64,000 nt of DNA from Minisyncoccota bacterium (lineage in GTDB: Bacteria; Patescibacteriota; Minisyncoccia; UBA6257; 02-FULL-45-10c). The notes under the pieces were generated by a model. It ran no database searches. It saw only the letters and a program-made list of their open reading frames with translations, and was not told the DNA's origin. The stretch's first letter is position 1. Every line of letters begins with the position of its first letter. Location of the stretch: NCBI GenBank assembly GCA_028716745.1, contig JAQUPE010000002.1, positions 29,819 through 93,818 on the forward strand, in the 5' to 3' direction. A program made the translations under genes and the position numbers. Positions 8,943-63,400 of the stretch are shown in pieces.

Positions 8943-10061
8943 ATGTATAATTTGAAAATGTTAGCTATCTACAGAAAATATCGCCCGAAAACTTTAGGAG
9001 AATTATTGGGGCAAGAACACGTCGTAGAAATACTTAAAAACGGCGCTGCGCAGGGAAAATTCGCCCATGCTTATCTTTTTTACGGCCCGAAAGGTTCGGG
9101 AAAAACTACCGCCGCCCGCTTGCTGGCAAAGCTCGCTAATTGCGAAACCAGGCAAAACGACAAAACTTTCCGCGAAAAAGGAGAGCCCTGCAATAAATGT
9201 TCCGCCTGTTCCCAGATTGATACCGGCCAAGCCCTGGATGTCGTAGAAATAGATGCCGCTTCCAACCGCGGCATAGACGAAATCCGCAATCTCAAAGAAG
9301 GGATCAAGCTATCCCCTTCTTTTCTCCATTACAAAATTTTTATAATCGACGAAATTCACATGCTTACCCGCGACGCCTTCAACGCGCTTCTTAAAACTCT
9401 GGAAGAGCCTCCGGCGCATGCGATTTTAATTATGGCCACTACCGAATATGAAAAGATTCCGGCAACAATTTCTTCCCGCGCCCAGCGTTTCCATTTCCAA
9501 AAACTTTCTCTGATAAAAATACTTGAAAAGCTCAACCGCGTTATAAAAGAAGAAAAAATAAAAATATCTCCTGAAGCCCTGGAGTTAATCGCCTCCTTAG
9601 CTGAAGGCAGCTTGCGCGACGCCGAATCTCTTTTGGATCAAATAGCGTCATTAGACCAGGATATAAATATAAAAGATGTTGAAAATATTGCCGGAAAAAT
9701 CGGACATAAAAAAACTTCAGCAATGGCCGAATATCTTATTAAAAACAACTTGCCTGGCGCTTTGAATTATTTAAACGAAATAGACCGCGGCGGCTCCAAT
9801 CTGGTTGAACTGAATAAAGATTTGATCCATTATCTCCGCCGAGCTTTGACCCTGAAAATGAATCCTCAAATGGAAGAATTATATAAAAAAGAATTGATAA
9901 AAGACGAGCTAACCGCTTTAAAAAATCACTCTGTCCTCATCAACGATCAAAAAATAATTTCGATAATAAAATCTCTCATCCGCGCCTACGGCGAAATGCG
10001 CTATTCTCCGTTTCCAATCGCTCCTCTGGAAGTTGCAATCATAGAAAACCTCAAATCCTGA
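8943..10061 (+). CDS. dnaX: DNA polymerase III subunit gamma/tau, short form (domains I-III only; possible true start at 8958, MLAIYRKYRP)
   Basis: YRKYRPKT...GPKGSGKTT (Walker A)...CNKCSACSQI (zinc module)...IDEIHML (Walker B)...SRAQRF (sensor). Confidence 0.85.
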   Translation: MYNLKMLAIYRKYRPKTLGELLGQEHVVEILKNGAAQGKFAHAYLFYGPKGSGKTTAARLLAKLANCETRQNDKTFREKGEPCNKCSACSQIDTGQALDVVEIDAASNRGIDEIRNLKEGIKLSPSFLHYKIFIIDEIHMLTRDAFNALLKTLEEPPAHAILIMATTEYEKIPATISSRAQRFHFQKLSLIKILEKLNRVIKEEKIKISPEALELIASLAEGSLRDAESLLDQIASLDQDINIKDVENIAGKIGHKKTSAMAEYLIKNNLPGALNYLNEIDRGGSNLVELNKDLIHYLRRALTLKMNPQMEELYKKELIKDELTALKNHSVLINDQKIISIIKSLIRAYGEMRYSPFPIAPLEVAIIENLKS

Positions 10062-10185
10062 CAGCCCAGCCAGGAAATTGCATCGAAAGATTTAAAATCT
10101 TAACCAAAAAACCTAAAAACCAACCTGTATATTATATGATAATTGTAACATATGATGTACAACTGTTTTTGGGGAATTAAAAAAT

Positions 10186-10227
10186 AAAAAACCCACCTTA
10201 TCGGTGGGTCCTGCCTTGTTGGGCAGT
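10186..10227 (-). terminator. tandem hairpins ending the REC-paralog operon (also closes dnaX on the + strand)
   Basis: cccacc-ttatc-ggtggg read on the minus strand is followed by a T-run. A second hairpin is ctgcc-ttgttg-ggcag. Confidence 0.55.
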
Positions 10228-10238
10228 TGTTTGTTGCT

Positions 10239-10664
10239 CTATGAAAGATCAGGCAGTGTGGCGAGAAAGTCGATCAGGCAGTTCTTGCTTACGCAATAGT
10301 TGCCTCCGGCTTTCATCAGCATGTCCTGTGCCTCCGGGTCGCAGGAAGTCACGATGATTGGTCCGAGAAATTTCGGGTCTTCTTCCCTGAACTTCTCGGC
10401 CAGATGCGCAAGCATATCTTTTATTTCGATGATGTGCTTGATGTTCTTCACACCATCCCTTTTCTCGCGCTCTTCGATGTTCAGGTATCCGCAAAATGCG
10501 ATCGCCCCGAGATCATTGAAGTTTTCTTTGTACTGCTTTTCCGCCTCTGCTACGCTCCAGGCAAACAGAAGTTTCATCTTCTGTCCCGCCCCCAGCAGCT
10601 TGACTCGCCTTTCGTATTGGCGAGTCAATTCAGGGGTGTTTTCAAGTATTAAGACTTTTTTCAA
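10239..10664 (-). CDS. degenerate receiver-like (pseudo-REC) protein, paralog of the next two genes
   Basis: Shares the C-terminal AG..YC.SK motif with its neighbours. The N-terminus VLILENTPE replaces the acidic DD pocket and there is no Asp at the phospho-acceptor position. GC-elevated. Confidence 0.45.
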   Translation of the reverse strand: MKKVLILENTPELTRQYERRVKLLGAGQKMKLLFAWSVAEAEKQYKENFNDLGAIAFCGYLNIEEREKRDGVKNIKHIIEIKDMLAHLAEKFREEDPKFLGPIIVTSCDPEAQDMLMKAGGNYCVSKNCLIDFLATLPDLS

Positions 10665-11034
10665 GTTCTGCCTCCCGTTCTGCGAAGATTTTCTCGATCA
10701 GCTCTCCCAACTGGAAGAACTTTTCTTTCGAACACTGATAGGCACAACCCGCCTCTGCAAGCTTCTCCCGCCCCTCTTTGCTGTTTGAAATGGCGATGAC
10801 AACGATCTTGCGCGCCGCGAGAAATTCCTGGGTCAGAAGGAATGTGTTTCCTCCGCCCTTCATATTGTAATCCATCAGGACTACGGATATGTCCGGAAGA
10901 TCTCCGAATGTATTCCTCGCTTTTTCCGCGTTCTCGGCGTAGTACGCCGATATTCCCGAAACCTCGATGTACTCCAGAAATTCGTCCGCGAACTCCCTGT
11001 CGTCGTCAACCAGCAGCATTTCTTTTTTTATCAT
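10642..11034 (-). CDS. stand-alone response-regulator receiver (CheY-like) domain protein
   Basis: LLVDDD (beta1 acidic pocket), VVLMDYNMKGG (phospho-acceptor Asp), IVVIAISNS (Ser/Thr), ...AGCAYQCSK (Lys). Confidence 0.65.
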   Translation of the reverse strand: MIKKEMLLVDDDREFADEFLEYIEVSGISAYYAENAEKARNTFGDLPDISVVLMDYNMKGGGNTFLLTQEFLAARKIVVIAISNSKEGREKLAEAGCAYQCSKEKFFQLGELIEKIFAEREAELEKSLNT

Positions 11035-11410
11035 CAGCCTCTTCCTCCTTTTGGAAAACTTCCGCGAGTATGACCATCAGATCGATAATCCCGCTTTGAA
11101 CACACCCGTACACGCAGCCAGCCCCTAAGAGCTTTTCTCTTTCCACGAAATCGTCCGAGATCGCAACGATCTTGGTTTTCTTCCGCAGATCGACAAAACT
11201 CTTTGCCAGCTCCAACGTGTTTACTCCGTCACCGAGGTCATAGTTCATAAGAACCACGGTGATGTTCGGATTGTTTACAAACACGCCGAACGCGTTGTCC
11301 TTGTCCGAGGCATGAGTCACCTCAATGCCCGGAGACTCGAAGTAGTGCTTCATCATCCACGCGAACTTCTCGTCTTTGCCCACTATCAGCATGCCTATTT
11401 TATCTCTCAT
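11006..11410 (-). CDS. receiver-like paralog with Asn at the phospho-acceptor position (pseudo-receiver)
   Basis: VVLMNYDLGDG aligns to VVLMDYNMKGG of the neighbouring gene with N for D. MLIVGKDEK replaces LLVDDD. Confidence 0.55.
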   Translation of the reverse strand: MRDKIGMLIVGKDEKFAWMMKHYFESPGIEVTHASDKDNAFGVFVNNPNITVVLMNYDLGDGVNTLELAKSFVDLRKKTKIVAISDDFVEREKLLGAGCVYGCVQSGIIDLMVILAEVFQKEEEADDKKRNAAG

Positions 11411-11507
11411 ATTTCTCTCTCCTTTTTAAAAGTACTTCCCTGTCTGAATTTACTGAATTTTTGATAATATATTATATAACAATATTAGCTTAATGTCAAT
11501 TTAGCGC

Positions 11508-11549: not shown

Positions 11550-13361
11550 ATGAAAATTAGAAATGTTTCTATAATCGCCCACGTTGACCACGGCAAAACG
11601 ACTTTGGTTGACGCGCTTTTAAAACAGTCTGATACCGACTTGGGAAAGCTTGGCGACCAAAAAGAATTAATAATGGATTTCAACGATCTTGAAAAAGAGC
11701 GCGGAATTACCATATTTTCTAAAAACGCTTCGGTCCAATACGGCGACACGAAGATCAATATAATAGATACTCCAGGACACGCCGACTTCGGCGGCGAAGT
11801 GGAGCGCGTGTTAAACCTTGCCGACGGTTCCCTACTTTTAATCGACGCGCAGGAAGGCCCGATGCCTCAAACCAGATTTGTTTTGAAAAAAGCGCTTTCA
11901 ATGGGCCACAAAATAATCTTGGTTATGAATAAAATAGATAAGCCAAACGCCAGAATAAATTACGCTTTGGATAAAGTTATCGAGCTTTTTATAGAACTCG
12001 GAGCAACTAATGACCAATTGAACTTCCCGATAATTTACGCATCCGGAAGAGACGGCGTTGCCGGACTAACTCCGGAATTGGAAAAAATGACGGATATTAA
12101 GCCGATTTTTGACGACATTATAAAATATATTCCCGAGCCAAAAGCCAATGCCAGCGGTCCGCTGCAAATGATGATTGTTTCCATTTCTTACGACAATTAC
12201 ATGGGCAGAATCGGCATAGGCAGGATTTACAGCGGAAAAATAAAAAATGGCCAAGCCATTTCCCATATTTCCCGCGAGGGCAAAACTGTAAAATCAAAAA
12301 TAACTTCTTTAATGACCTTTTCCGGACTTACCAAAAAAGAAACTGCCGAGCTTGAAGCCGGAGACATAGCCGCCGTCAGCGGAATAGACAATATAAATAT
12401 CGGCGACACTATCGCGGAAGAAATAGATCCAATCGCTCTCCCGCCGATTAAAATCGAGGAGCCGACCGTCAAAATGATTTTCAGCGTAAACAACTCCCCC
12501 TTTGCCGGAAAAGAAGGAAAGTATTGCACTTCAAGAAATTTAAAAGAACGCTTGGAAAAAGAATTGGATAACGATGTAGCGCTCCGCGTTAATCCCGGAA
12601 AATCTCCGGATGAATTTATCGTCTGCGGACGCGGCGAGCTTCATCTTTCTATTTTAATTGAAACAATGCGCCGTGAAGGATATGAAATGCAGGTCTCCCG
12701 CCCCGAAGTTATTATGAAAGAAGAAAACGGAAAAATTACCGAACCGACCGAAGATGCCTGGCTTGAAGTACCAGAAAAATATTCCGGAATGGTTATTGAA
12801 AAAATGGGACTCAGAAAAGGCACGCTTAAAAATATGAGCGTGGAAAACGGCATCGCTATTTTCCATTTCTATATTCCAACCCGCGGACTTATCGGATTCA
12901 GAAATGAATTCATGATTGAAACCAAAGGAACAGGAACTATCAATTCCCTTTTCGCCGGCTATGCGCCGAAATTTGATAATATTCAAACCAACCCGCATGG
13001 ATCAATTATTGTCCATGAAGCCGGAGCCTCCACCGCCTACGCTCTTTTGAAAATTCAGGAACGCGGAGAAATGTTTATCGGTCCTGGCGTTAAAGTTTAT
13101 GAAGGACAAGTTGTGGGAGAAAATGCCAAAGCCGAAGATATAATTTCAAATGTCTGCAAAGCAAAACAGCTTACAAACTTCAGAGCTAAAACCGACGCCG
13201 TCACCGACGACTTGGTTCCGCCCCGCGAAATGTCTCTTGAGCAAGCTATTGAATATGTTGGCGACGATGAACTTGTTGAAATTACTCCTATCAGCATCCG
13301 ATTAAGAAAAAGAGTTTTAAGCGGTACCCTCAGAGGCTCTCAAAAACGCCAAAATTCCTAA
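11550..13361 (+). CDS. typA: translational GTPase TypA/BipA
   Basis: IRNVSIIAHVDHGKTTLVD...DTPGHADF...NKIDK; 603 aa. Confidence 0.9.
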   Translation: MKIRNVSIIAHVDHGKTTLVDALLKQSDTDLGKLGDQKELIMDFNDLEKERGITIFSKNASVQYGDTKINIIDTPGHADFGGEVERVLNLADGSLLLIDAQEGPMPQTRFVLKKALSMGHKIILVMNKIDKPNARINYALDKVIELFIELGATNDQLNFPIIYASGRDGVAGLTPELEKMTDIKPIFDDIIKYIPEPKANASGPLQMMIVSISYDNYMGRIGIGRIYSGKIKNGQAISHISREGKTVKSKITSLMTFSGLTKKETAELEAGDIAAVSGIDNINIGDTIAEEIDPIALPPIKIEEPTVKMIFSVNNSPFAGKEGKYCTSRNLKERLEKELDNDVALRVNPGKSPDEFIVCGRGELHLSILIETMRREGYEMQVSRPEVIMKEENGKITEPTEDAWLEVPEKYSGMVIEKMGLRKGTLKNMSVENGIAIFHFYIPTRGLIGFRNEFMIETKGTGTINSLFAGYAPKFDNIQTNPHGSIIVHEAGASTAYALLKIQERGEMFIGPGVKVYEGQVVGENAKAEDIISNVCKAKQLTNFRAKTDAVTDDLVPPREMSLEQAIEYVGDDELVEITPISIRLRKRVLSGTLRGSQKRQNS

Positions 13362-13402: not shown

Positions 13403-13479
13403 ATTGGGAGATCGTCCCTGGCCCCTGGCCGGGCTAGGCGGGCAGGCTCAACAAACAAAATAAAAATTGGGAGATCGTC
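13403..13479. repeat. 14-nt direct repeat (attgggagatcgtc at 13403-13416 and 13466-13479) flanking a 49-nt insertion at the 5' end of tRNA-Gln
   Basis: The second repeat copy forms the tRNA 5' acceptor/D-stem. The insert is GC-rich repeat copy B followed by caacaaacaaaataaaa. Confidence 0.6.
13415..13448. repeat. 33-nt GC-rich repeat, copy B (tccctggcccctggccgggctaggcgggcaggct)
   Basis: 17-nt exact identity to 2240-2256 plus flanking similarity. Intergenic location. Confidence 0.6.
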
Positions 13480-13538
13480 TAATGGTAGGACACCGCCCTT
13501 TGGAGGCGGGTATCGGGGTTCGAGTCCCTGTCTCCCAG
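13468..13538 (+). tRNA. tRNA-Gln (anticodon TTG); CCA not encoded
   Basis: Acceptor stem tgggaga/tctccca, D-arm gtct-aatggtag-gaca, anticodon stem ccgcc/ggcgg with loop CTTTGGA, T-arm cgggg-TTCGAGT-ccctg, discriminator G. Confidence 0.8.
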
Positions 13539-13578
13539 CATTTCGGCAAACTTAAAAATAAATAGAAATAATTTAAAG

Positions 13579-14388
13579 ATGAGTTTAAAAGAATTTAACA
13601 AGATTTTTGGAATAAAAAACGATCCCCAAGAAGAAGAGGTGCGGTTTGTAAATCGTATTAATCAAACCATGTTTCGTGCAATACGCCATAATCCACACCC
13701 CGATGATTATGAGTCACTCATCAGAAGTATCTGCTACAAACTTGGTATAAATCCAAATGATTTCATTAAGGTAGATAAATATGCTGATCGTATCAACATC
13801 GCTGATTTGGGCAGCCTTTCTAAAAATGATTTTAGAGAAACCTTAAAAATTATTGTTTTATTATACGAAACCGTAAGCTCTAATAATACAAAAGAATTAA
13901 TTAATAGGTATGTTGAACTTGCACTTGCCGCTGCGACTATTGAGCTTGGCATTAGATGGAAAGATGGAATGTTTTATAGAAGCGGCGCAAAAGAATTAGA
14001 TAAAAAATTAATAAACGACAACTTAGACTGGCTACATATTTGCTCCGATGCAAGAACCCTATTTGGTACCGCCCTTGAACACTTTAACAAATCTATAACT
14101 GATGATACTGCACGTAAAGATACAATTACAAATAGCTATTCTTCAATAGAAGCTCTGGCACAAAAAGTTTTAAATAATAAAAAAACTTTTGAAAATAATT
14201 TAAACGACTTAATGTCATTTTTAGATCTTCCTAGAGAGTACAGCAATATTTTTAATGGATATAAACAAATTGCACATGGATTTAGTAGTCGACACCCAGG
14301 ATCTATACCATCACATATAGAAACAGAAGCATTTATTTATATGACTGGACTTTTGATGCGACTTATCAGTGAAAAATATAATAAATAA
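13579..14388 (+). CDS. hypothetical 269-aa largely alpha-helical cytoplasmic protein next to the tRNA (possibly accessory)
   Basis: ATG is preceded by an A-rich region. No TM segment and no recognised motif except C-terminal SSRHPGSIPSH. Overlaps the next ORF. Confidence 0.5.
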   Translation: MSLKEFNKIFGIKNDPQEEEVRFVNRINQTMFRAIRHNPHPDDYESLIRSICYKLGINPNDFIKVDKYADRINIADLGSLSKNDFRETLKIIVLLYETVSSNNTKELINRYVELALAAATIELGIRWKDGMFYRSGAKELDKKLINDNLDWLHICSDARTLFGTALEHFNKSITDDTARKDTITNSYSSIEALAQKVLNNKKTFENNLNDLMSFLDLPREYSNIFNGYKQIAHGFSSRHPGSIPSHIETEAFIYMTGLLMRLISEKYNK

Positions 14389-19748: not shown

Positions 19749-22700
19749 ATGAAAGTCGGGCACGTCTCGCGTAAAAATTTTGCTCTGACATTTTTTATTG
19801 CTGTTTTTATTTTCGGCTTTTTAGGCCTCATCAATACATCTCTCGCCTGGACTAGCCCCACACAGACCCCTCCCAATGGGAATGGGGTTGTTTCCGCATC
19901 CAGCGGATTTCTTGGAGTCGGCGGAATAACTGCTCCCGCCCAATCTCTTCAAATAAAAGCTTCTGCCGACAACGGAGTTTATCCTCTCGACATTACTCTT
20001 CCCAATGGAAACAGAAGGGCAGCGTTTTATTTAGCCAACGGAAACGGTTCATTTTATCTTTACGATTCTGCTAACGCCACCAAAGTACTTTTAACATCTT
20101 ACATGAACGATCCGAGCTATTTTAATATTACAAACGGAAATTTCGGACTTGGAACAACTGTGCCGACAGAAAAATTTGACGTCAGAGGAACTTCATACTT
20201 CGGAGGAAATACTGATATCTACGGACACATAACTATTAATAACAGCGGCGGCGTAGTAAAAATACAACCCGGGACAGTCACTTCTCCGGGAATTCAAATT
20301 GCCGGCGATCCCAATACCGGAGTCTATAGCCCCGACGCGGACAGAATATCATTTGTCACTGCCGGAACAGAAAGAATATCTATTCTCGCAAATGGAAATG
20401 TCGGAATCGGAACAACCAACCCCACTCAGCCTTTCAGCGCAAAATCTGGAAGCACAGTGCTTAATTTTTCAGGCAGCGGAGAATTTTTAACTAACGCAGT
20501 ATTTTCACAATTGGGAGCAACCAGCTATCTTGGAAATACAATTACCAACTACAGCACCGTCGATGATTTAAAAATAGAACCGCGAACAAATACAAAAAAT
20601 CTTTTATTGGCAACCGGAACAGGAAATGTCGGAATTGGAACAACCGCGCCGATGGGAAAAATTGATTTGGGAACTACGGGAGATTTTATTTTTGGAACGA
20701 CAACAGAAAAAATAAATTTAAGCGGAAATTATTTAAGACTTAAGGCACGAGGAAGCTCTGTTGCTTCACAAGAAATAACTATAAGCAGGCACGATGATAC
20801 CTATGATTATTTAAAACTTGACACTGATTCAATTATTTTTACTTGGAGAAAAGCGGCCGATATTAATGGAAACACAAATATTTATGGCTACTACAATATG
20901 TCCGGCGGAACATATCTTAATATGGGAGGCAGCCCAATTTACGGCAACACCACAGCCTCCGGAAATCTTACTCTCCACTCAACATCGCATGCCACAAAAG
21001 GAATTGTCCGTATTAATCCTTCTGGAGGAAACGTCGGCGTAGGAACCACTGCCCCTTCAGCCGCATTTGCAGTAAGCGGATCTATCTATACCTCCGGCGG
21101 ATATGTATTTCCCGATGGAATATTATTTACAGGAACCGGAACTTTCGGACAATGGTCTAAAACCGGCGCAAACATTTATCTGACTAACAGCTCTGATAAT
21201 GTTGGAATATCAACTACTACTCCAAATCAAAAACTGCGGATTGATTCCGGAAATATTAAATTAAGCGGCGGTTCAGGATTTGCCTGGAAGGGAATATCCG
21301 GATCAGACTCTTTTTCTTCTATGACAAACGGGCTATTTAAATTGTATTACGGCAACGACAACGATGGCTCATTGGTTTTAAATACCAACGCTAGCTCTCT
21401 TACAGAAATTTATGCCACTGGCGCATCCACCGGCTTAACCCTTGGAGTTAATAGCGCGGAAAAAATAAGAATCTCCCCCGCCGGAAATGTCGGTATCGGT
21501 TCAACCGGACCGACAGCCGAACTTGATGCAAGCGGACGCGGAAGATTTTCTCAAGGAATACAAATTACAGGAAATACATCTTTCCCCGCCGACACAGGAT
21601 TAGTTTTAAGAAGCTACGCGGGCTACAAAGAAATTCAATCTTTTAATAGCTCTCCTATCGCTCTCAATCCTGTCGGCAATAATGTCGGAGTTGGAACAAC
21701 CACTCCATATAATACTTTTGCTGTTTCTTCTGCAGGATCCGATCAAACACTTTTTAGATCTACCGGAACTTCCTATGGAACAGTAAATATAGATGTCGGG
21801 GGAACAGGAATTCCTAATTTGCAATTCAGGCAAGCCGGAGTCGCAAAAGCCGCAATCGGAGTTGATGCTGCGGGAAAATTATTATTTGGAATACCAAATA
21901 CCTCCAGCGCAAAAATGCTCATCGATACAAACGGAAATGTTGGAATTGGAATAGCAACGCCAACCGCGCAGCTGCATATTCCATCAAAAATACCGACAGC
22001 AGCAACCGGAGTAGCAACAACTTCAGATAAGCCAATTTCTCTAACTGTCCAGGGAAGATATGCCTATGTAGGAACCGAGGATCTTTCTAATTTTCAAATT
22101 TTTGATATTTCAAACCCTACCGCGCCCTTACTTATGGGGTCCACCGGACTTGGAGCTTATGATGTAATACTCTCTCCCCGTGTTCAGGGAAGTTATGCTT
22201 ACGTATTAAACAATACTGACGCGCTTCTTTATGTCGTTAATGTTTCCAATCCAATAACCCCTGTAATTGTGGGAAGCGTAGCAACTGGAGCATCTCCTTA
22301 CGATCTTTATGTCTCAGGAAAATATGCATACGTAGCAAACTACACTCCAAAAACTCTTCAGATATTTGATATTTCTAATCCGCACTCGCCAATCAGCGTA
22401 GGCAGCGTCGCCACAACGGACAATCCTCAAACTGTTTATGTTCAAGGAAGATATGCATACGTTGCGGGCGCCGATCTTCAAATTTTTGATATTTCAAACC
22501 CTGCATCTCCCGTAAGCGTTGGAAGCTATGCAACAATGGGAAGCACTCAGACCGTAGTAGTTCAAGGAAGATATGCTTATATGGGCAGTTCCGGATCGCA
22601 AGTGCTTGAAGTTCTTGATGTTGCAAATCCCGCAGCCCCATCAAGCGTAACTTGGATTAGCACAGGAGTAAGCACAAGAGTTTATTCTGTTCAAGGAAAA

Positions 22701-24020
22701 TATTTATATGCCGCTAACGGAACTCAATCTACTTTTCAAATTTTTGATATTTCAAACCCTGCATCGCCGACAAGCATGGGAACTGTTTCCACGGAAACCA
22801 CTCCTCAGTATGTCTGCGTCCAAGGAAGATATGCATATATAGTAAATTTTAATTCAGACTCTCTCCAAGTTTTTGACCTCAGCGGATCATACATACAACA
22901 ATTAGAAGCAGGCGGAATAGAAACAGGAACTTTATCTGTTAGAACAAATGCAATTATCAATAATGATTTGGATGTAAGAGGAGGTTTGCAGATAGGAGGC
23001 GGACTGGCAGCATACGGAGCTTCTTCATTCTTCAGTACCAGCACTGACAATATTCTTTCTGTTGCAAGAAAAGGAGGAACTTATCCTACTGTATTTAAAG
23101 AAGGCACAGACGGAGCCTTTATTTTGAATAATAATAATGTTGATGTTTTAACATTAAAATCAGGCAATGTAGGAATAGGAACCACCGCCCCAAGCGCATC
23201 ATATGGAACACTGACCGTCGCCGGTACGGGAGTAACTATTTCAGACGATGGCAATGCCAAATTACAGCTTGGACGATACAGCGGGGCCGCTGACTATTCC
23301 TATATTAAAGCTTCCGCTGCATCGCAAGGATTTAAATTTTCAAATGCCTTGGACACTGCAGATTTGGTTATTATAAAAAATGCCGGTAATGTAGGCATCG
23401 GCGTTGATCCGGGAAGCTATAAACTTAATGTTAACGGACCGCTTAATGCCACAGCTCTATGGGAAAATAGCAGCAGCAAACCAACCGATAACTATGCACT
23501 AAGAGGAACATGGACTGATCTCGGCAGCTACCCTTCCGCCTGCAGCGGTTATAATATGGCAACCGGAATTGGAGATACCCTAACATGCGGATTCAACGCA
23601 TACCCTGTTTACGCAAGCGAAACAACTGCCAATCAACGCATTCAAACCGATACAAATACAAACGTTTATGTTTATCTGGATGAAGTAAGAGATCCTCAGG
23701 GCAGATGGAATTCCGATTATTATTATTCCTGCCCGGTAACCGGCTATTACCAAGTCTCCGCCGGATTTATGGCATCTGATGTAGAAGCCGGCAAATGGGC
23801 TGAAGCCATTATCGCTGTAAGCGGATCGGCAAGATGCGTTCAATCTAAATCTCAATATGGAGTAGGTGGATGGGAAGTTTGGCAAACTTCTTGTAAGGTT
23901 TATTGCACGTCAAGCCAATCCATTTCCTTAATGACTAAAAGCGCCGATCCAGATTACTATATTAGATATGAGCCTGGCATCGGCTATGCCTATATTTCAA
24001 TTTATCTTGCCGGATTATAA
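19749..24020 (+). CDS. giant secreted paralog 1 (1423 aa): signal peptide, GNVGIGTT-type fibre-like repeats, 7 LVIVD-type repeats, conserved connector, divergent Cys-containing C-terminal tip
   Basis: N-terminal hydrophobic segment ending SLA|WTSP. Repeated G-N-V-G-I-G-T-T-x-P units from about aa 30-760. Seven units of G[RK]YAY...LQIFDISNP.SP (LVIVD-like, PF08309-type) at ~22044-22975. Then YIQQLEAGGIETGTLS..., then C-terminal ...YPSACSGY..GIGDTLTCGF.... Confidence 0.8.
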   Translation: MKVGHVSRKNFALTFFIAVFIFGFLGLINTSLAWTSPTQTPPNGNGVVSASSGFLGVGGITAPAQSLQIKASADNGVYPLDITLPNGNRRAAFYLANGNGSFYLYDSANATKVLLTSYMNDPSYFNITNGNFGLGTTVPTEKFDVRGTSYFGGNTDIYGHITINNSGGVVKIQPGTVTSPGIQIAGDPNTGVYSPDADRISFVTAGTERISILANGNVGIGTTNPTQPFSAKSGSTVLNFSGSGEFLTNAVFSQLGATSYLGNTITNYSTVDDLKIEPRTNTKNLLLATGTGNVGIGTTAPMGKIDLGTTGDFIFGTTTEKINLSGNYLRLKARGSSVASQEITISRHDDTYDYLKLDTDSIIFTWRKAADINGNTNIYGYYNMSGGTYLNMGGSPIYGNTTASGNLTLHSTSHATKGIVRINPSGGNVGVGTTAPSAAFAVSGSIYTSGGYVFPDGILFTGTGTFGQWSKTGANIYLTNSSDNVGISTTTPNQKLRIDSGNIKLSGGSGFAWKGISGSDSFSSMTNGLFKLYYGNDNDGSLVLNTNASSLTEIYATGASTGLTLGVNSAEKIRISPAGNVGIGSTGPTAELDASGRGRFSQGIQITGNTSFPADTGLVLRSYAGYKEIQSFNSSPIALNPVGNNVGVGTTTPYNTFAVSSAGSDQTLFRSTGTSYGTVNIDVGGTGIPNLQFRQAGVAKAAIGVDAAGKLLFGIPNTSSAKMLIDTNGNVGIGIATPTAQLHIPSKIPTAATGVATTSDKPISLTVQGRYAYVGTEDLSNFQIFDISNPTAPLLMGSTGLGAYDVILSPRVQGSYAYVLNNTDALLYVVNVSNPITPVIVGSVATGASPYDLYVSGKYAYVANYTPKTLQIFDISNPHSPISVGSVATTDNPQTVYVQGRYAYVAGADLQIFDISNPASPVSVGSYATMGSTQTVVVQGRYAYMGSSGSQVLEVLDVANPAAPSSVTWISTGVSTRVYSVQGKYLYAANGTQSTFQIFDISNPASPTSMGTVSTETTPQYVCVQGRYAYIVNFNSDSLQVFDLSGSYIQQLEAGGIETGTLSVRTNAIINNDLDVRGGLQIGGGLAAYGASSFFSTSTDNILSVARKGGTYPTVFKEGTDGAFILNNNNVDVLTLKSGNVGIGTTAPSASYGTLTVAGTGVTISDDGNAKLQLGRYSGAADYSYIKASAASQGFKFSNALDTADLVIIKNAGNVGIGVDPGSYKLNVNGPLNATALWENSSSKPTDNYALRGTWTDLGSYPSACSGYNMATGIGDTLTCGFNAYPVYASETTANQRIQTDTNTNVYVYLDEVRDPQGRWNSDYYYSCPVTGYYQVSAGFMASDVEAGKWAEAIIAVSGSARCVQSKSQYGVGGWEVWQTSCKVYCTSSQSISLMTKSADPDYYIRYEPGIGYAYISIYLAGL

Positions 24021-24034
24021 ATAAAATATAATTT

Positions 24035-27000
24035 ATGGAAAAAATTAATCAAAAAATAAAATTTATAATCATCGGCGCCGTTTCTATTGCGGGAGCTTTT
24101 GCTTTTTCACAATCGGCTTTTGCCTGGTCAAATCCTGCCCAATCCCCTCCCGCCGAAATAGGATCTCTTAAATTTACCAGCGGCTTTCTCGGCATAGGCG
24201 GAATTGTAACTCCTTCTCAATCTCTCCAAATAAAATCTGCTTCTATTAATGGGGTCTATCCTCTTGATTTATTAAATAATTCTTCCGGCAGAAGGGCGGC
24301 GTTTTATATAGCTAACGAAAATGGCTCGATATATTTTTATGATTCCGCGGGAGCTGAAAAAATATTACTTACTTCTTACTGGGGCAATCCAAGCTACATT
24401 AATACCAGCGGAGGAAATTTTGGAATAGGAACAACAGATCCGCAATATAAATTGGATGTAAAAGGAAGCGTCCGCGCAACCAGCAACATCTGGGTATATG
24501 GCAGCATAATAATGAGCAAGAGCGACGGAGTTATTCAAATGAGGGCCGGGACTGCTGCTCTTCCGGGTATTGTAATCAGCGGTGATGAAAATACCGGAAT
24601 ATTTAGTTCTGGCGCCGATAAATTATCATTTTCCGCTGGCGGCACAGAAAGAATTACTATGCTGGACAATGGAAATGTAGGAATTGGAACAGCTACTCCG
24701 GATTCCGCATTTACTGCTATGGGCGGCACTTTTAAATTACAGGTAAAATCTGGGGAAATATTTACCAGCGGATTTTATGCCCAACCGGGAGGAACAACCT
24801 ATCTCGGCAATACTATATATAATTATGCGACCGATGCCGATTTAACGGTAAATCCCCGCACAACTTCAAAAAATCTTCTATTAGCAACCGGAACCGGAAA
24901 TGTCGGAATTGGAACAACCGCTCCATTAGGAAAACTAGATATTGGGTCAACCGGAACCTTGGCTTTTGGAGCAGCTACCGAAAAAATAGAAAGCATAGGG
25001 CACTCCAGCGGAAAATACATTACTATCACCGCCAGAGGAGGCGCCACTTCGGCAAGATCTATTTGGATGGGAAGAAGAGGAGATGACTATAACTATCTAT
25101 GGATGGATACCGACGCCACTAAATTCTCATTCCAAAAAGGAATGCAGATTGTCGGAGGAAGCAATATTTATGGAAATCTTGTTTTTGGCGGAAGCACATA
25201 TCTTCTCGGCATGGGAGGCAGTCCGATTTACGGAAATAATACATCTTCCGGCAACCTTATTCTTGATTCAACATCAAGCGGAACAAAAGGATTCGTTCTT
25301 ATTAATCCTTCAGGAGGAAATGTAGGCGTGGCCACCACTTCTCCAGGAGCCGTATTCGCGGTTAATGGAACTATTTATTCCAACACAGGATATAAATTCC
25401 CGGATGGAGCGCTTATAACTAATGGCGCAGGGTTAAATTCTTGGACAAGAGCGAATCCAAACACCTACCCAACTACCATCGGCAATAATATCGGCATAGG
25501 AACCTCTTCCCCTGACGAAAAATTGCATGTAGCAGGAAATATTAAATTATCCGGAACAGGAAAATTAATTTGGGGAATGAATTCCTGGATTAATTCTTCT
25601 GATGGATTATTTACTCTCAATGCTCCTTCCAATTCATTAAAACTAGACGTAAATCCAAGCGGCGTTTCTCAAATCCTTACTTCTGGCGCCTCCAGTCTTA
25701 CTCTTGGCGCTAGCAGCACAGAAAGAATTAGAATTTCCGCCGCTGGAAACGTTGGAATAAATTCAACAGACCCAGGCGTTGAATTTGATGTTACCGGACG
25801 AGGAAGATTTTCTCAGGGAATGCAAATTACCGGATGGCAAACATTCCCCTCAGGAACGGGACTTATCATGCGCGATGCCGGCACCTACAAAGAAATACAA
25901 TCTTTTAATTCCACTCCCCTTGCGCTAAATCCTGCAGGAAATAACGTCGGAATTGGAACCACCGATCCAATCGCCACATTTACCGCACAAGGAGCTGTCT
26001 CCGACATAGCCTTATTCAAATCTACCGGCTCATCTTATGGAACAGTAAATATAGATGTCGGAGGAACAGGAATTCCTAATTTGCAATTTAAACAGGCTGG
26101 AACAGCAAAAGCTGCAATCGGAGTTGATTCTCTAGGAAAATTAATATTCGGATTAGCCGATACTTCCGCCATAAAGATGACTATTGATACAAATGGAAAT
26201 GTCGGAATAGGAACAACTACTCCGTTGGCGCAATTATACGTAGCCGGAAGAACAACTCCTGTCCAAACTGGTTCCGTAGGATCAAGTTCGAATATTTATA
26301 ATACTTACATGGCCATTCAAGGAAATTATGCCTATCAAGTAGATGCTGAGGATTCTTCCGTTCTTCAAGTTATTGATATTTCCAACCCGGCCTCTCCAGA
26401 AATTATTTCGTCAACAAATCTTGGTGCTATATCTTTGGATATAGCCGTCCAAGGAAAATACGCATATATTACCGGCCCAGATTTGAAAGTTTTTGATATT
26501 TCCAATCCGAAAGCTCCGGTGAATATTTCTACGCTAGGCATAGTCGGAGATAAAATTTATGTCCAAGGAAAATATGCGTATGTGGCAACAAACGTAAATT
26601 ATGGCGCTCAAACTTTAAAAATTGTTGATATTTCAAATCCATTTGTTTTAACTACTGCCGGCTCCGTTGCAGCAACAAATATACCTACCGATATCTTTGT
26701 CCAAGGAAGATATGCCTACATAGCCGGCTATGACGCAAATTGCAAAATAGCTGATATTTCTAATCCGGCCTCGCCTGTAATAGTCAGTTCTTTTTCGACT
26801 ACCGATGCGGCAACTTCTATTTATGTCCAAGGAAGATATGCCTATATTTCTACAAGCCCGATGAACTCCGGCAATTTATTGGTGTATGACATTTCTAATC
26901 CCGCCGCTCCATCAAATATAGCAACACTAGGTCTGGGCAATGATGTTAAATCTATTTATGCCCAAGGAAGATATGTTTATGCAGGAGTAAGACTTTCTAA

Positions 27001-28291
27001 TAGTGTTCAGGTAATAGATGTTTCCAATCCTGCCACTCCCGTACTCTTCGGATCCGTTGGCGTAACTGCTCCATGGACTGTTTCAGTAAGAGGAAGATAT
27101 GCATATGTAGGAAATGGAAATAGCTTAACGGTCATCGACCTCGGCGGAGCCTACATACAGCAATTGGAAGCAGGCGGAATAGAAACAGGAACTTTGTCTA
27201 TAAGGACAAATGCTTCAATCAATAATGATTTGGATATAAGAGGAGGCTTGCAGATAGGAGGCGGACTGGCGGCATACGGAGCTTCTTCATTCTTCAGCAC
27301 CAGCACTGACAGCGTCCTTACTGTTGCGAGAAAAGGAGCGACATATCCTACTATATTCAAGCAAGGTACGGATGGAGCTTTTGTCTTAAATAATAATAAT
27401 GCCGATGTTATGACGTTAAAATCCAGCAAGATTGGTATTGGAACTACCACTCCTAGCTTGTCTTATGGAACTCTTACTGTTGGAGGTACAGGACTGACTA
27501 TTTCTGACGATGGCAATGCTAAATTGCAGATTGGAAGATATAGCGCGGCTGGAGGCAACGACTATTCATATATAAAGCCGTCAACTGTATCTCAAGGAAT
27601 AAGATTTTCAAACTCTGCCGATACGGATTGGGTTACTATTAAAAACAACGGCAACGTCGGAATCGGAACAACTGATCCGGGCATCTATAAACTCAGCGTA
27701 AGCGGATCGCTTGATTCTACGGGAATATATGAAAACGGGACTACTTTGAATAATACTTATGTAAATAAAAGCACATGGACAACGCACGACAATTATCCTT
27801 CCGCTTGCGGATCTGGATTCGCATCTGGGATTGGAGACTCGCTGACTTGCGGATTTAATACATACACCACTTACGCCACAAAATCAGGCGCCGAACAAAG
27901 AATTCAATCTTATGGCTATGCCGATATTACTATTGATAGACAGGCAGACACGGACCCTAATGGATTATGGACCTCCAATTATTATTACGATTGCCCCGTA
28001 GATGGCTATTATCAAGTAGAAGGCGGATTTATGGCCTCGGACATACAAGCATATTCTCCGACTTCAATCGCCGTTGCGGTAAACGGAACTATTAAGTGCT
28101 TTAATAAAAAACCTCAGCTATCAGGGGCAGGATATTGGGAGTCTTGGAATGTTTCCTGCATTGTTTATTGCACAACAAGCACGCATCAATATATAACCCT
28201 GCAAGCCCAAAGCGACGATGGAGATTTTAAAATCCAGAATGCCGTCGGTGCCGCATATACTTTCATTTCAGTTAACCTTGTAAGCAAATAA
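24035..28291 (+). CDS. giant secreted paralog 2 (1418 aa), same architecture
   Basis: Signal peptide ...SAFA|WSNP. Same repeat architecture, with 7 LVIVD-like units at ~26335-27150. The gap to paralog 1 is 14 nt. Confidence 0.8.
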   Translation: MEKINQKIKFIIIGAVSIAGAFAFSQSAFAWSNPAQSPPAEIGSLKFTSGFLGIGGIVTPSQSLQIKSASINGVYPLDLLNNSSGRRAAFYIANENGSIYFYDSAGAEKILLTSYWGNPSYINTSGGNFGIGTTDPQYKLDVKGSVRATSNIWVYGSIIMSKSDGVIQMRAGTAALPGIVISGDENTGIFSSGADKLSFSAGGTERITMLDNGNVGIGTATPDSAFTAMGGTFKLQVKSGEIFTSGFYAQPGGTTYLGNTIYNYATDADLTVNPRTTSKNLLLATGTGNVGIGTTAPLGKLDIGSTGTLAFGAATEKIESIGHSSGKYITITARGGATSARSIWMGRRGDDYNYLWMDTDATKFSFQKGMQIVGGSNIYGNLVFGGSTYLLGMGGSPIYGNNTSSGNLILDSTSSGTKGFVLINPSGGNVGVATTSPGAVFAVNGTIYSNTGYKFPDGALITNGAGLNSWTRANPNTYPTTIGNNIGIGTSSPDEKLHVAGNIKLSGTGKLIWGMNSWINSSDGLFTLNAPSNSLKLDVNPSGVSQILTSGASSLTLGASSTERIRISAAGNVGINSTDPGVEFDVTGRGRFSQGMQITGWQTFPSGTGLIMRDAGTYKEIQSFNSTPLALNPAGNNVGIGTTDPIATFTAQGAVSDIALFKSTGSSYGTVNIDVGGTGIPNLQFKQAGTAKAAIGVDSLGKLIFGLADTSAIKMTIDTNGNVGIGTTTPLAQLYVAGRTTPVQTGSVGSSSNIYNTYMAIQGNYAYQVDAEDSSVLQVIDISNPASPEIISSTNLGAISLDIAVQGKYAYITGPDLKVFDISNPKAPVNISTLGIVGDKIYVQGKYAYVATNVNYGAQTLKIVDISNPFVLTTAGSVAATNIPTDIFVQGRYAYIAGYDANCKIADISNPASPVIVSSFSTTDAATSIYVQGRYAYISTSPMNSGNLLVYDISNPAAPSNIATLGLGNDVKSIYAQGRYVYAGVRLSNSVQVIDVSNPATPVLFGSVGVTAPWTVSVRGRYAYVGNGNSLTVIDLGGAYIQQLEAGGIETGTLSIRTNASINNDLDIRGGLQIGGGLAAYGASSFFSTSTDSVLTVARKGATYPTIFKQGTDGAFVLNNNNADVMTLKSSKIGIGTTTPSLSYGTLTVGGTGLTISDDGNAKLQIGRYSAAGGNDYSYIKPSTVSQGIRFSNSADTDWVTIKNNGNVGIGTTDPGIYKLSVSGSLDSTGIYENGTTLNNTYVNKSTWTTHDNYPSACGSGFASGIGDSLTCGFNTYTTYATKSGAEQRIQSYGYADITIDRQADTDPNGLWTSNYYYDCPVDGYYQVEGGFMASDIQAYSPTSIAVAVNGTIKCFNKKPQLSGAGYWESWNVSCIVYCTTSTHQYITLQAQSDDGDFKIQNAVGAAYTFISVNLVSK
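27136..27559 (+). repeat. 424-nt tract about 98% identical to 31451..31874 (paralog 2 vs paralog 3 connector region)
   Basis: Direct comparison shows a handful of mismatches over about 424 nt. The identical shadow ORFs 27151..27450 and 31466..31765 in the track reflect the same tract. Confidence 0.85.
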
Positions 28292-28307
28292 ATAGAAATT
28301 ATAAAAT

Positions 28308-31300
28308 ATGAACAATAAATTTAAAAATAAAAATATGATTAAGTCTATAATTCTATTTTTGGGAATAATTATTTCTTCAACGGCCTTTGCATGGACTAAT
28401 CCCTCGGCCAATCCGACTCAAGTTACCGGAGCAATTTCAATCAGCGGCGGAAATCTTGGAGTGGGCGGCGTAACTTCCCCATCCCAATCTCTTCAAATAA
28501 AATCTTCCGCCGACAACGGAACTTATCCTTTGGACATTACCGATTCTTCCGGCAACAGAAGAGCCGCTATTTACATGGCTAACGGAAATCCCGAATTAAA
28601 TCTTTTTGATTCCGGCGGCACTCTTCGGGTAAAAATTTCTCCTTATGCCAATAACCCTAGCTATATAAACGTAAGCGGAGGAAATTTAGGAATAGGAACA
28701 ACCGCACCGGAATATAAACTACACATAGCCGGGACCGCTTATTTCGCCGGCGATACTACTGTATATGGAAACTTAGCCATAGATACCTCTGGAGGACAAA
28801 TAAAAATGAGAACCGGCACAGTCAGCGCTCCTGGCCTTCAAATTAATGGCGATCCAAATACCGGAGTCTATAGCGCCGCCGCCGATACTTTAAATGTATC
28901 AACCGCAGGCGCAAATCATATTACCGTGTTACCGTCTGGAAACGTAGGTTTTGGTTCCGGAGCTACCGCCCCAGACGGATCGTTCTATGTTAGAAATGCC
29001 GCAGGCGGCGTATTTAAATTCATGACCAGCGGAGAATTATATGTAGGCGGAACCATAGCCCAGCAAGGCGCCGAGAGCTACATGGGAAGCACTATAGTAA
29101 ATTACAGCTCCAATACTGACCTCACAGTTCAGCCTCGTACCACCTCTAAAAATTTAATACTGGCGACTGGAACTGGAAACGTAGGAATCGGAACTACTTC
29201 TCCTAAAGGAAAACTTGATGTGGGAGCAACAGGAAATATTATTTTTGGAAATGCAACAGAAAAAATAGATCTCAATGGAAATTATGTGAGATTATCCGGC
29301 AGAGGACTTGCCACTTCCGCCAGATCTATTTGGTTTGGCAGATTAAGCGATGCCAGCGACAGCCTGGCCATAGATACCGATGCTGTTATATTTGAATGGA
29401 GAAAAGGTATTGAAATGGTTGGCGATGTAACCCTCAATGGCCAGTTTTCTTTCAGCGGCAGCGGCTACTATCTTATGCTTCAAGGAAAAACAATTTACGG
29501 CGCAACTACAACCTCCGGAAATCTTACTCTTAATTCAACGTCTAATGCTACAAAAGGATTTGTCTTTCTTAATCCTTCTGGAGGAAGCGTGGGCGTAGCC
29601 ACCACTTCTCCAGGAGCCACATTCGCAGTTAACGGAGCTATTTATACAAATACCGGATTTAGATTCCCCGACGGAAGCATGCTGACAAATGGCGCCGGCT
29701 TAGGAGCGTGGTCTAAGTCAGGAAATTATTTATATCTGACCACCAGCTCCGACAATGTAGGCATCGGCACCTCTAGTCCGACAGAAAAACTTTATGTTGA
29801 TTCTGGAAATATCGGAGTAGATGAAGGATATAGCATGCTTTGGGGAGGAGCGGCTATATCAACACTTAATTATAATAATGGTTTGTATAAATTATATTAT
29901 AACGGCGATAACGATGGGTCCTTAGGAATTAATTTGGGAAGCAATATAATAAATATTTATTCTACTGGAAACTCATCTAATTTAACTTTTGGAGCAAACG
30001 ATTATAGCAGAAGAATAGTGATTACTCCTGCCGGAAATATCGGTATCAGTTCGACAGACCCAGGAACAGAATTAGACGTAACGGGAAGAGCCAGATTTTC
30101 TCAGGGAATACAGATAACCGGAGTAACCACATTCCCCGCCGGAACAGGAATTATTTTAAGAGACCAAACAAATTATAAAGAAATCCAATCATTTGATGTC
30201 TCTCCCCTCGCCTTAAACCCCGCCGGCAATAATGTCGGTATAGGAACAACCGCCCCAACTGCCCTATTTATGGTTTCTTCCTCAGGAACCGATCAAGCAG
30301 TCTTTAGATCTACCGATACTTCTTATGGAACCATGGGCGTTGATGTTGGAGGCACCGGCATTCCTAATGTCCAATTTAAACAAGCCGGAACTTCTAAGGC
30401 AGCGATTGGAGTTAATAACGCCGGACAATTAATATTTGGAATAACAAACACCACTGGCCCGAAAATGATTATTGGTTCAAACGGAAATGTTGGTGTTGGA
30501 TCAACAACGCCTATGGCCCAATTGCATGTAGCAGGAAATATACCAAGCGCAGCAGCAGGATCAACTTCTACGGGCAGTACGCCTGGCTCAGTCTTTATCC
30601 AAGGAAGATATGCCTATGTATTAAATTCAGTCGACAGAACCTTGCAGATTTTTGATGTTTCTAATCCTTCCGCTCCAATAAGCAAAGGAACAGCTACTAC
30701 AATAGGAGCATCTCAAGATCGTCCTCAAAATTTATATGTCCAAGGGAAATACGCATACTTAGCAGTTGATCATAATTATGGAAGCGAGCCGGGAACCATT
30801 CAGATTTTTGATGTTTCTAATCCTACTGCGCCAACAAATATAAGCATGGTAACAGCCGGCGATATTCCGGTTTCCGTATACGTCCAAGATAAATATGCAT
30901 ATGTTGTAAATTATGGAACAACAGATACGTTTAAAATTTTCGATATTTCCAATCCTTTCCAACCCACTCAAATAGGAACTATAAATACAACCTATTATGA
31001 TCCTACTTCTGTGTTTGTTCAGGGAAGATATGCTTACATTGTTTATGAAAACTCTTCCAGGCTTGAGATATTCGATATTTCTAATCCCGCAACGCCCATT
31101 AGTACAGGCTCTGTGAATACCGGCGCAAACGGCGCAACGGCAGTCTATGTTCAAGGAAGATATGCGTATATAGCAATGGATGGAAATTTTAAAATCGTTG
31201 ATATTTCCAATCCTGCCGCGCCCGCCAATAAAGGATCATTAAGCATCGTAGGATTTGAAATTGTTGTTCAAGGAAAATATGCATATCTGGCAGATGCAAG

Positions 31301-60916: not shown

Positions 60917-61411
60917 TTAGTCCAGGGCCCTGGAGCTTACGGTTGTCTGAATATTGATAACCGGATTATTAAACTCAGGCGCGTTTGGCACTCCGATTTG
61001 CATAAAAATAGTTATCTTGGCCGGCGGAGCAGCCACTAAATTAAATTCCATTTTTTTAACCACGACATCCTCGGCGGTTATCTGCGCATCGTTTCTTTCT
61101 ATAAAATCTCCGTCCTGCTTATAGGTAACGCTCTCCCCGAAAGAATTGGTAAAGCTGATCTCTTGCGGATTTGCCGAAGAAAAACCGTAGCCCGTCCTCA
61201 TTTCGCGCGACATCTGCTCTATCGCCAGCTCCGCATTATTATCAGCCGCAATCAAAGCCGTGGTTACCCGCTGACTGCGCAAAGATCTGACAAAAACACC
61301 CGAAACAACGCTTATTACGGACAAAAACAAGGTAATTGCCACCAGCGTTTCCACCATGGTAAAACCTCCTCGCTTCAATAAAACTTTTTTATTTTTTAAA
61401 ATTTTATTCAT
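60917..61411 (-). CDS. type IV pilin-like protein (minor pilin/pseudopilin) with a class III signal peptide
   Basis: KRGGF|TMVETLVAITLFLSV prepilin cleavage/methylation motif. Confidence 0.65.
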   Translation of the reverse strand: MNKILKNKKVLLKRGGFTMVETLVAITLFLSVISVVSGVFVRSLRSQRVTTALIAADNNAELAIEQMSREMRTGYGFSSANPQEISFTNSFGESVTYKQDGDFIERNDAQITAEDVVVKKMEFNLVAAPPAKITIFMQIGVPNAPEFNNPVINIQTTVSSRALD

Positions 61412-62449: not shown

Positions 62450-62502
62450 TATAGTAAAAAATACGCCGCATTAAAACGGCGCTCTATGAAATGTAAAAAC
62501 AT

Positions 62503-63378: not shown

Positions 63379-63400
63379 TATTTAGTGATTTAATTCTGAA

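Follow-up and report, generated by a model that had tools for sequence, protein, structure and literature searches.

A GC-rich operon of three single-domain receivers, two of them lacking the acceptor aspartate, in a Minisyncoccota genome

The 64,000-nucleotide (nt) stretch of a Minisyncoccota bacterium analysed here (GenBank assembly GCA_028716745.1, contig JAQUPE010000002.1, positions 29,819 to 93,818; hereafter the window) carries on its minus strand a cassette of three short, overlapping genes, P1, P2 and P3 in order of transcription, which are annotated as PHN74_01120..01130 in a Candidatus Pacebacteria metagenome-assembled genome (MAG). All three encode single-domain receiver (REC) proteins of one distinct subfamily that has no curated model. 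P2 retains a full set of catalytic residues, and P1 and P3 lack the acceptor aspartate. Our overall reading, to which we give a probability of roughly 0.55, is that the cassette is a vertically inherited operon in which P2 would serve as an orphan phospho-receiver and P1 and P3 as phosphorylation-independent modulators, and whose GC-rich, structured mRNA is maintained.

Membership of the receiver family was assessed both by sequence profiles and by predicted structure. Against the Pfam model PF00072 (Response_reg), which has a gathering score of 30.2 bits, P2 scored 27.4 bits (profile positions 2-109 of 111) and P1 20.1 bits; P3 gave no match. Despite these scores, homology to receivers is clear at the profile level: PDB matches of a combined P1 and P2 profile, and of a profile of the wider family, were to response-regulator receiver domains only, with E-values down to 2e-14, and P1 and P2 span the full profile in these comparisons. 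P1 and P2 share 35% identity (E 3e-23), and the closest relatives of P1 are P2 and its counterpart in a related genome, P0004. No significant BLASTP similarity links P3 to P1 or P2, but it matches the family profile in hhalign (98.65%, E 5e-16), the family hidden Markov model (HMM; E 5.5e-14) and, by BLASTP, other members of the family (down to E 2e-9). An AlphaFold (AF2) model of P3 built with the family multiple sequence alignment has a predicted local distance difference test (pLDDT) score of 91.1 and a predicted template modelling (pTM) score of 0.85, and its elements follow the order β1-α1-β2-α2-β3-α3-β4-α4-β5-α5 of a (βα)5 fold; the corresponding single-sequence prediction was uninformative (pLDDT 49). 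When the model was compared with the PDB using Foldseek, nearly all of the top 50 matches were REC domains, with template modelling (TM) scores of 0.6-0.75, the best being RR468, Sln1-REC, HP1043, CheY and Spo0F. P3 has some 20 additional residues, by which its β3-α3 region is lengthened.

A first-pass annotation of the window had described the three proteins as stand-alone receivers and mutual paralogs sharing a C-terminal motif. Paralogy is borne out directly for P1 and P2 and, in the case of P3, by the family profile and not by BLASTP. Their status as receivers holds by profile and fold, the PF00072 model giving matches below its gathering score for two of the proteins and none for the third. 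The shared motif corresponds to the β5 region, including the conserved Lys position, but P3 has AGG there and not AGC.

The same annotation saw in the middle protein a canonical receiver, in the upstream one an Asn acceptor without the acidic pocket, and in the downstream one a further degenerated relative, and in each case the alignments agree. P2 reads DD/D/S/K at the acidic pair, acceptor, hydroxyl and Lys positions (residue numbers in Table 1), so that, judged from its residues, it is equipped for phosphorylation. P1 reads GK/N/S/Q, with four of the five catalytic residues missing, and P3, which is the protein without a PF00072 match, reads EN/C/S/K, with two of the five missing; the acceptor is among the losses in both. 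In hhalign it is C58 that falls at the acceptor position of P3, and in the model this residue sits where strand β3 ends. With MAFFT the position goes to G59 or N62, and an Asp occupies it in none of the alignments. An aspartate-less receiver (ALR) is defined as a protein with REC fold or homology but no acceptor Asp, and a pseudo-receiver as one in which at least one of the five catalytic residues is missing (PMC12632262); P1 and P3 fall under this aspartate-less receiver/pseudo-receiver definition.

The organisation of the cassette, as read from its signals, is that of an autonomous operon. As previously described, three overlapping minus-strand genes encode proteins of 130-141 residues and end in a terminator of their own, with open reading frame (ORF) coordinates exactly as had been claimed. 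The predicted unit also has its own sigma-70-type promoter and a Shine-Dalgarno site for each of the three genes. The ORFs of P1 and P2 overlap by 29 nt and those of P2 and P3 by 23 nt, and are probably translationally coupled. The terminator is placed 27 nt past the P3 stop codon, and the operon is flanked by typA and dnaX.

Word-based searches of 5.8 billion proteins retrieved, for each of P1, P2 and P3, only the protein itself. An exhaustive HMM search recovered the ortholog P0004 together with many stand-alone proteins of about 115-125 residues, with the consensus KVLiVEDd … NPDI..IvMD….G..NT..L … IIA.S … L..AGC…C.K. In an alignment of 37 members, D11 (the second of the acidic pair), D55, S83 and K103 (P2 numbering) are each at least 90% conserved, and P1 alone lacks D11, D55 and K103 together; the invariance of the G-C pair in the alignment is partly a product of sequence selection. 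NCBIfam holds no model specific for the family, PHROGs gave generic REC matches only, and the Pfam scores of other members range from 20 to 42 bits, several being below threshold. Tandem duplication recurs, with two genes each at the loci L002 and L137, and P0005 and P0026 are fused double receiver domains. The contigs with family members reach 747 kb, and very small genomes seem to carry the family commonly.

Two observations on individual members may be added. At L137 (7294-7674) a second, divergent copy lies 300 nt upstream of the typical one; it keeps the acceptor Asp and has Arg at the second acidic position (LLDRD), and may be another duplicated receiver drifting towards a pseudo-receiver. 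On two metagenome contigs (L091, 5924-6991; L093, 7287-8360) the family receiver forms the C-terminal part of an ORF of 355-357 residues, of which the N-terminal 240 or so residues are Cys-rich and zinc-ribbon-like, with several CxxC pairs; this may be a fusion hinting at a partner domain.

The closest known proteins are the CheY-like single-domain regulators (CheY, Spo0F, DivK and Thermotoga RR468), which supply the best PDB matches in both sequence and structure. P2 and the family have in common with them the (βα)5 fold and the five catalytic positions (DD, D, S/T and K), and likewise stand alone at about 115-130 residues without an output domain. They differ in several respects besides the low Pfam scores of the window proteins. 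The β3-α3 loop of the family is longer and ends in a conserved N-T, not P-x-x-D-G; in β5, G-C replaces G-A, often with a second Cys four residues later, and there is no K-P; and the family has no chemotaxis, sporulation or cell-cycle partner genes nearby and no linked kinase. P1 (Asn) and P3 (Cys) are comparable to aspartate-less receivers such as RitR (Asn53), the Cys-ALRs, HP1043 and FrzS, in which the acceptor is gone and the fold kept (PMC4395418; PMC12632262). Asn is the second most frequent substitution in ALRs and Cys-ALRs are a described class (PMC4395418); the ALR HP1043 is, as noted, among the best structural matches of P3. Judged by the reviewers' list of 20 cases, most of the characterised pseudo-receivers are N-terminal domains of transcription factors or of larger proteins (PMC4395418; PMC12632262). 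P1 and P3 differ in consisting of one domain only and in sharing a transcript with a paralog from their own subfamily that has stayed intact, and the positional ortholog of P3 in the nearest relative keeps its Asp. Receivers, orphan receivers and ALRs are all known already; the novelty lies in a family that lacks its own curated model and is set apart by its β3-α3 loop and β5 motif.

The cassette had also been described as markedly more GC-rich than its surroundings, and so it proves. Its GC content is 49.3%, compared with a mean of 39.5% (standard deviation (sd) 2.6%) for segments of the same size, or about 3.8 sd above the mean; it is the highest-GC stretch in the 64 kb, a level reached by 0.16% of segments, and the flanking intergenic regions have 35.6% and 23.7% GC. 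The excess is concentrated at synonymous sites, since GC content at third codon positions (GC3) is 0.60-0.62 for P1-P3 (P1 0.615, P3 0.62) against 0.371±0.046 for the 53 other genes, whose maximum is 0.497. In GC3 the cassette is about 5 sd higher than the host genes. Its codon usage, too, departs sharply from that of the other window genes: CTG makes up 45% of Leu codons in the cassette and 10% in the rest of the window, ATC 61% and 14% of Ile codons, and usage of AAC, TAC and TTC is 62-75% compared with about 20%. Codon bias of the kind associated with high expression was considered as the cause of the GC3 excess and ruled out, because CTG is avoided by the ribosomal-protein genes of the window, which also have little preference for NNC codons.

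Raised GC3 is a family-wide tendency, seen across many unrelated host contigs and including medium-GC hosts. This was assessed with 31 non-redundant members (<80% identity), each having at least five neighbouring genes. The mean excess over the neighbours was +0.119 (Wilcoxon p 8e-6), and the receiver ranked first in GC3 at 13 of the 31 loci (2.4 expected), or at 9 of 27 when the window and L002 were left out (p 3e-4). The most extreme differences were 0.56 vs 0.18 (L107) and 0.71 vs 0.33 (L099). For other short genes of the same loci the mean GC3 difference was +0.014.

The mRNA of the cassette is strongly structured. Folding z-scores relative to dinucleotide-shuffled sequences were -3.0, -2.9 and -6.7 for P1, P2 and P3, respectively, with a background of -0.50±1.04 (minimum -3.42) for 63 pieces of other window genes; in the same window control P3 gave -5.87, the lowest value in the window. 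Permutation of synonymous codons, a control that keeps both protein and codon usage and tests for a codon-periodicity artefact (background -0.55±1.11), yielded z-scores of -3.83 for P1 and -5.08 for P3 (0/100 in each case). The two genes of the related locus L002 gave -3.0 and -3.4 by dinucleotide shuffling and -2.4 and -3.3 by codon permutation. For the family as a whole the mean z was -0.98, compared with -0.09 for neighbouring genes (p 0.0012), and 24% of family genes, against 4% of neighbours, lay below the 5th percentile of the window background. We cannot say in which direction cause and effect run between mRNA structure and GC content. A perfect hairpin that belongs to the strongly structured P3 mRNA (Table 1) lies within the P3 coding region, 14 nt downstream of the P2 stop, and has no U-tract after it; within the mRNA it may act as a stabilising, processing or attenuating element.

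The history of the cassette can be read in part from a related Paceibacterota MAG (GCA_028715395.1), in which contig JAQURY010000019 carries the locus L002. The gene order there is typA – P0004 – 122-residue REC protein – dnaX – DUF4015 – scpA – scpB, with the cassette at the same site and in the same orientation as in the window. The intergenic region between typA and the cassette, with the conserved promoter in it, is 80% identical in the two genomes; the L002 promoter reads TTGACT-17-TATAAT. The L002 operon has two genes only, both with the acceptor Asp. P0004 is syntenic with P2 and 59% identical to it, and the 122-residue receiver, the positional counterpart of P3, has the acidic pair, Asp, Ser and Lys all intact. 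Since this positional ortholog still has Asp, the acceptor of P3 was lost in the lineage of the window; P1 is either a fast-diverging extra copy of P2 or an older copy that L002 has lost. The GC content of the L002 cassette is about 0.50 vs 0.42, and its GC3 is 0.59-0.63.

The genes around the cassette offer few clues to its partners. In agreement with the first-pass annotation, neither a histidine kinase nor an output domain was found in the window: HisKA, HATPase_c and histidine phosphotransfer (Hpt) domains, like output domains, are absent from the 56 ORFs scanned, and no cognate kinase adjoins the cassette there. The window neighbourhood is one of housekeeping genes (scpAB, dnaX, typA, pgk, mreBCD, secA, ribosomal proteins and type IV pilins). 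The syntenic L002 contig has no histidine kinase or Hpt protein either, and around 47 non-redundant metagenome members of the family there was no kinase and no neighbour conserved across independent loci, the recurring neighbour clusters stemming from near-identical contigs. Kinases were likewise absent from the Pfam-annotated contexts of three distant members. P0005 has a ribosomal-protein cluster on one side and aroA/mreB on the other, P0025 adjoins a D-Ala-D-Ala carboxypeptidase and a mraY-murD-ftsW-murG cluster, and P0009 (loci L153-L157) is bordered by an HD/HDOD protein and, on the opposite side, by phosphoketolase and acetate kinase. Acetyl phosphate, a small molecule known to donate phosphate to receivers, is a product or substrate of the last two enzymes. 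The linked kinase or Hpt protein of a classical two-component system was thus found neither in the window nor in the L002 contig nor in the other family contexts. Bacteria of the Candidate Phyla Radiation (CPR), to which this Paceibacteria genome belongs, encode on average 0.29 kinases for every 100 genes, and in 19% of CPR MAGs there is no kinase at all (PMC10805038), which makes an unlinked kinase plausible but not assured. The literature found on orphan response regulators in CPR bacteria consisted only of such general kinase-frequency statistics.

Under the reading that we favour, P2 would receive its phosphoryl group either from an unlinked histidine kinase or from a small molecule, for example acetyl phosphate, and would signal through protein-protein contacts in the manner of other single-domain response regulators (examples in PMC12802240 and PMC8995066). 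P1 and P3 would be co-translated with P2 from one mRNA and in fixed proportion to it, since coupled ORFs imply a fixed stoichiometry. Pseudo-receivers act independently of phosphorylation (PMC12632262; PMC4395418), and P1 and P3 might do so as partners or competitors of P2, of its target or of its kinase, and in this way adjust the pathway's gain or threshold; both could serve as decoys or modulators. The GC-rich, structured mRNA with its rare codons is probably a maintained property of the family, selected at the level of mRNA or translation. Every mechanistic step beyond the residues of P2 is one that we infer.

Several results weigh against this reading. All three proteins score below the Pfam gathering threshold, and the scanned ORFs of the window have supplied neither a phosphodonor nor a target. 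The similarity of P3 to the 122-residue receiver of L002 is weak (BLASTP E 0.002, 28% identity, dN/dS about 0.6), and P1 has no ortholog from which constraint could be estimated. Under codon permutation the z-score of P2 is -1.15, which is not significant. The GC3 excess is not universal, P0025 being below its neighbours and P0009 slightly above, and the amelioration argument set out below relies on a near-saturated synonymous divergence (dS) in a single genome pair.

The loss from P1 and P3 of catalytic residues conserved in at least 90% of the family, the 28% identity of P3 to its positional ortholog at a dN/dS of about 0.6, and the fact that the relative manages with two intact genes would all suit an alternative in which P2 alone is functional and P1 and P3 are decaying duplicates, relics turning into pseudogenes with no joint function. 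Against it, neither ORF is disrupted, each has a good Shine-Dalgarno site, the overlaps are coupled, and P3 is predicted to adopt a well-packed REC fold (pLDDT 91). P1 and P3, moreover, have a GC3 of 0.62 each (host 0.37) and, under codon permutation, the strongest mRNA-structure signal of the operon. Neutral decay in an AT-biased genome is expected to erode GC3-rich codons and mRNA structure, and P1 and P3 have kept both. Decay of the two genes seems rather unlikely.

A bolder version of the favoured reading is speculative, and we hold it to be doubtful. In it the family as a whole would be under nucleotide-level selection, GC-ending codons that AT-rich hosts seldom use having been kept, together with excess mRNA structure, over at least one synonymous substitution per site. 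Control of its regulators would then be largely post-transcriptional, by way of 'standby' mRNAs that resist nucleases or are translated slowly. In the operon such control would hold a live receiver and its two aspartate-less paralogs at a set ratio within a hetero-oligomeric switch, which would operate where kinases are few or absent and might sense the acetyl-phosphate pool.

The first-pass annotation had also raised the possibility of a horizontally acquired signalling module. Were the cassette a recent import from a GC-richer donor, its composition would be that of the donor, and the GC3 some 5 sd above the host, the foreign-looking usage of CTG, ATC, AAC, TAC and TTC, the dissimilarity to the codon usage of ribosomal-protein genes and the status of all three proteins as singletons in the word-based search would fit. 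Comparison with L002 nevertheless indicates vertical inheritance: site, orientation and promoter are shared, and dS between P2 and P0004 (about 1.0, with a dN/dS of 0.26) is within the range of the flanking genes (0.86-2.6), which fits co-inheritance of the cassette with its flanks. At about 0.5 substitution per synonymous site per lineage, a neutral import should, by an estimate from a simple two-state model, have shed about 60% of its GC3 excess, so that the GC3 of about 0.6 retained in both lineages points to maintenance rather than to recent import. The upward bias also recurs in many hosts, including those of medium GC. A profile scan of genome contigs (one genome per GTDB species, with the alignment of P2, P0004 and P1) found only the L002 MAG to be close and no close donor outside the CPR; the remaining 79 loci were generic REC domains of at most 40% identity and were not used. 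IMG/VR viral contigs contained no family members. No integrase, transposase or tRNA boundary is present at the cassette, and no mobility genes flank it. A 25-nt direct repeat does flank it, one copy overlapping the -10 box of the operon, and might count in favour of insertion; as an insertion scar it was rejected, being too weak (76% identical) and probably no more than AT-rich, promoter-like sequence. Of the marks of a genomic island, the cassette thus shows atypical composition but not a site that is absent in relatives, mobility genes or a younger age. Recent acquisition is, on this evidence, improbable.

It is very improbable that a structured RNA or other nucleic-acid element is primary here and the ORFs secondary. 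Such a view would accommodate the folding z-scores of -5 to -6.7, the perfect 10-bp hairpin within P3 and the long antisense ORF of the cassette, the last as expected in GC-rich DNA. It has to be set against the strong protein-level homology, with catalytic and core residues conserved in frame, the dN/dS of P2 below 1, the lack of any Rfam match within the cassette, and the conservation of family members elsewhere as protein and not as DNA.

A phosphate sink, which had also been suggested and in which the paralogs would draw phosphoryl groups off a kinase common to them, is scarcely credible. It would suit several small receiver paralogs that come from one operon and lack an output domain, as in the multi-CheY sinks of Sinorhizobium meliloti (CheY1/CheY2) and Rhodobacter sphaeroides; those sinks are phosphorylatable, however, and have the CheA kinase in the same cluster, whereas two of the three receivers here cannot accept phosphate and the window scan found no CheA-type or other kinase encoded nearby. 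A sink must itself take phosphate, so P1, with Asn and neither acidic pair nor Lys, and P3, with Cys, cannot be sinks since the acceptor Asp is missing. Asn-to-Asp deamidation has been discussed for Asn-ALRs (PMC4395418).

Receivers and pseudo-receivers being familiar, the proteins as such come as no surprise, but two aspects of the operon and its family deserve notice. Although CPR bacteria (Patescibacteria) have very few kinases, they still carry a distinct and apparently widespread family of orphan single-domain receivers without a curated model. A single transcript here holds an intact receiver, an Asn-ALR and a Cys-ALR, and the nearest relative keeps the intact ancestral state, which makes this a convenient case for the origin and role of pseudo-receivers. 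The persistent GC3 anomaly cautions against reading GC islands as horizontal transfer. It also suggests that, in reduced genomes, a single gene family is subject to some unexplained pressure, whether selective or mutational.

Table 1. Features of the receiver operon, active-site residues of its products and other features of the window
Feature	Coordinates	Strand	Details
P1	11006..11410	minus	134 aa, ATG at 11410; from ORF list
P2	10642..11034	minus	130 aa; from ORF list
P3	10239..10664	minus	141 aa, TTG start; from ORF list
P1 active site			G11-K12 replace acidic pair, N57 at acceptor, S kept, Q for β5 Lys
P2 active site			D10-D11 acidic pair, acceptor D55, S83, K103; full set
P3 active site			E8-N9, C58 at acceptor, S107, K127
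Sigma-70-type promoter	11471..11499	minus	TTGACA-17 nt-TATAAT; consensus matches 12/12
P1 Shine-Dalgarno	11415..11424	minus	AAGGAGAGAG, 4-13 nt upstream of ATG; read from sequence
P2 Shine-Dalgarno	11050-11044	minus	AAGGAGG; read from sequence
P3 Shine-Dalgarno	10676-10671	minus	GGGAGG; read from sequence
Perfect hairpin in P3	10600..10628	minus	10 bp, 9-nt loop; inverted repeat I3, 100% complementary
Intrinsic terminator	10188..10212	minus	GC-rich stem then T-run; 10-pair stem, 5-nt loop, TTATTTTTTA tail
Direct repeat, 25 nt	10128-10152 and 11468-11492		flanks cassette
dnaX	8943-10061	plus	flanks operon
typA	11550-13361	plus	flanks operon
GC-rich segment	401-1000		GC 0.49, AT skew -0.44
ORF in GC-rich segment	481-909	minus	142 aa
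RNase P RNA	1438-1793	plus	bacterial class A
tRNA-Gln(TTG)	13468-13539	plus	
ORF past tRNA-Gln	13579-14388	plus	269 aa
LVIVD-repeat genes	19749-32555	plus	three tandem paralogs
mreB paralogs	43244-44287 and 47360-48415		
Type IV pilus cluster	60917-63856	minus	

Other features of the window were noted in passing. A second segment of raised GC, with a strong negative AT skew, contains an ORF that makes heavy use of G-ending codons and has no Pfam match; it sits just upstream of the RNase P RNA gene, which scored 102 bits against a gathering score of 100 and is, together with the tRNA-Gln gene, the only RNA gene found in the window by Rfam or ARAGORN. Directly past tRNA-Gln, where the region is richest in AT (GC 0.29-0.35), the 269-residue ORF has no Pfam match and could be a small acquired gene. 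In the type IV pilus cluster three or four genes are pilin-like, their products bearing methylation motifs at the N-terminus, and there is a prepilin peptidase (A24); the window also has two mreB paralogs. The three tandem paralogous genes listed in Table 1 encode giant proteins of 1423, 1418 and 1415 residues with LVIVD β-propeller repeats, and the L002 contig likewise ends in LVIVD proteins.

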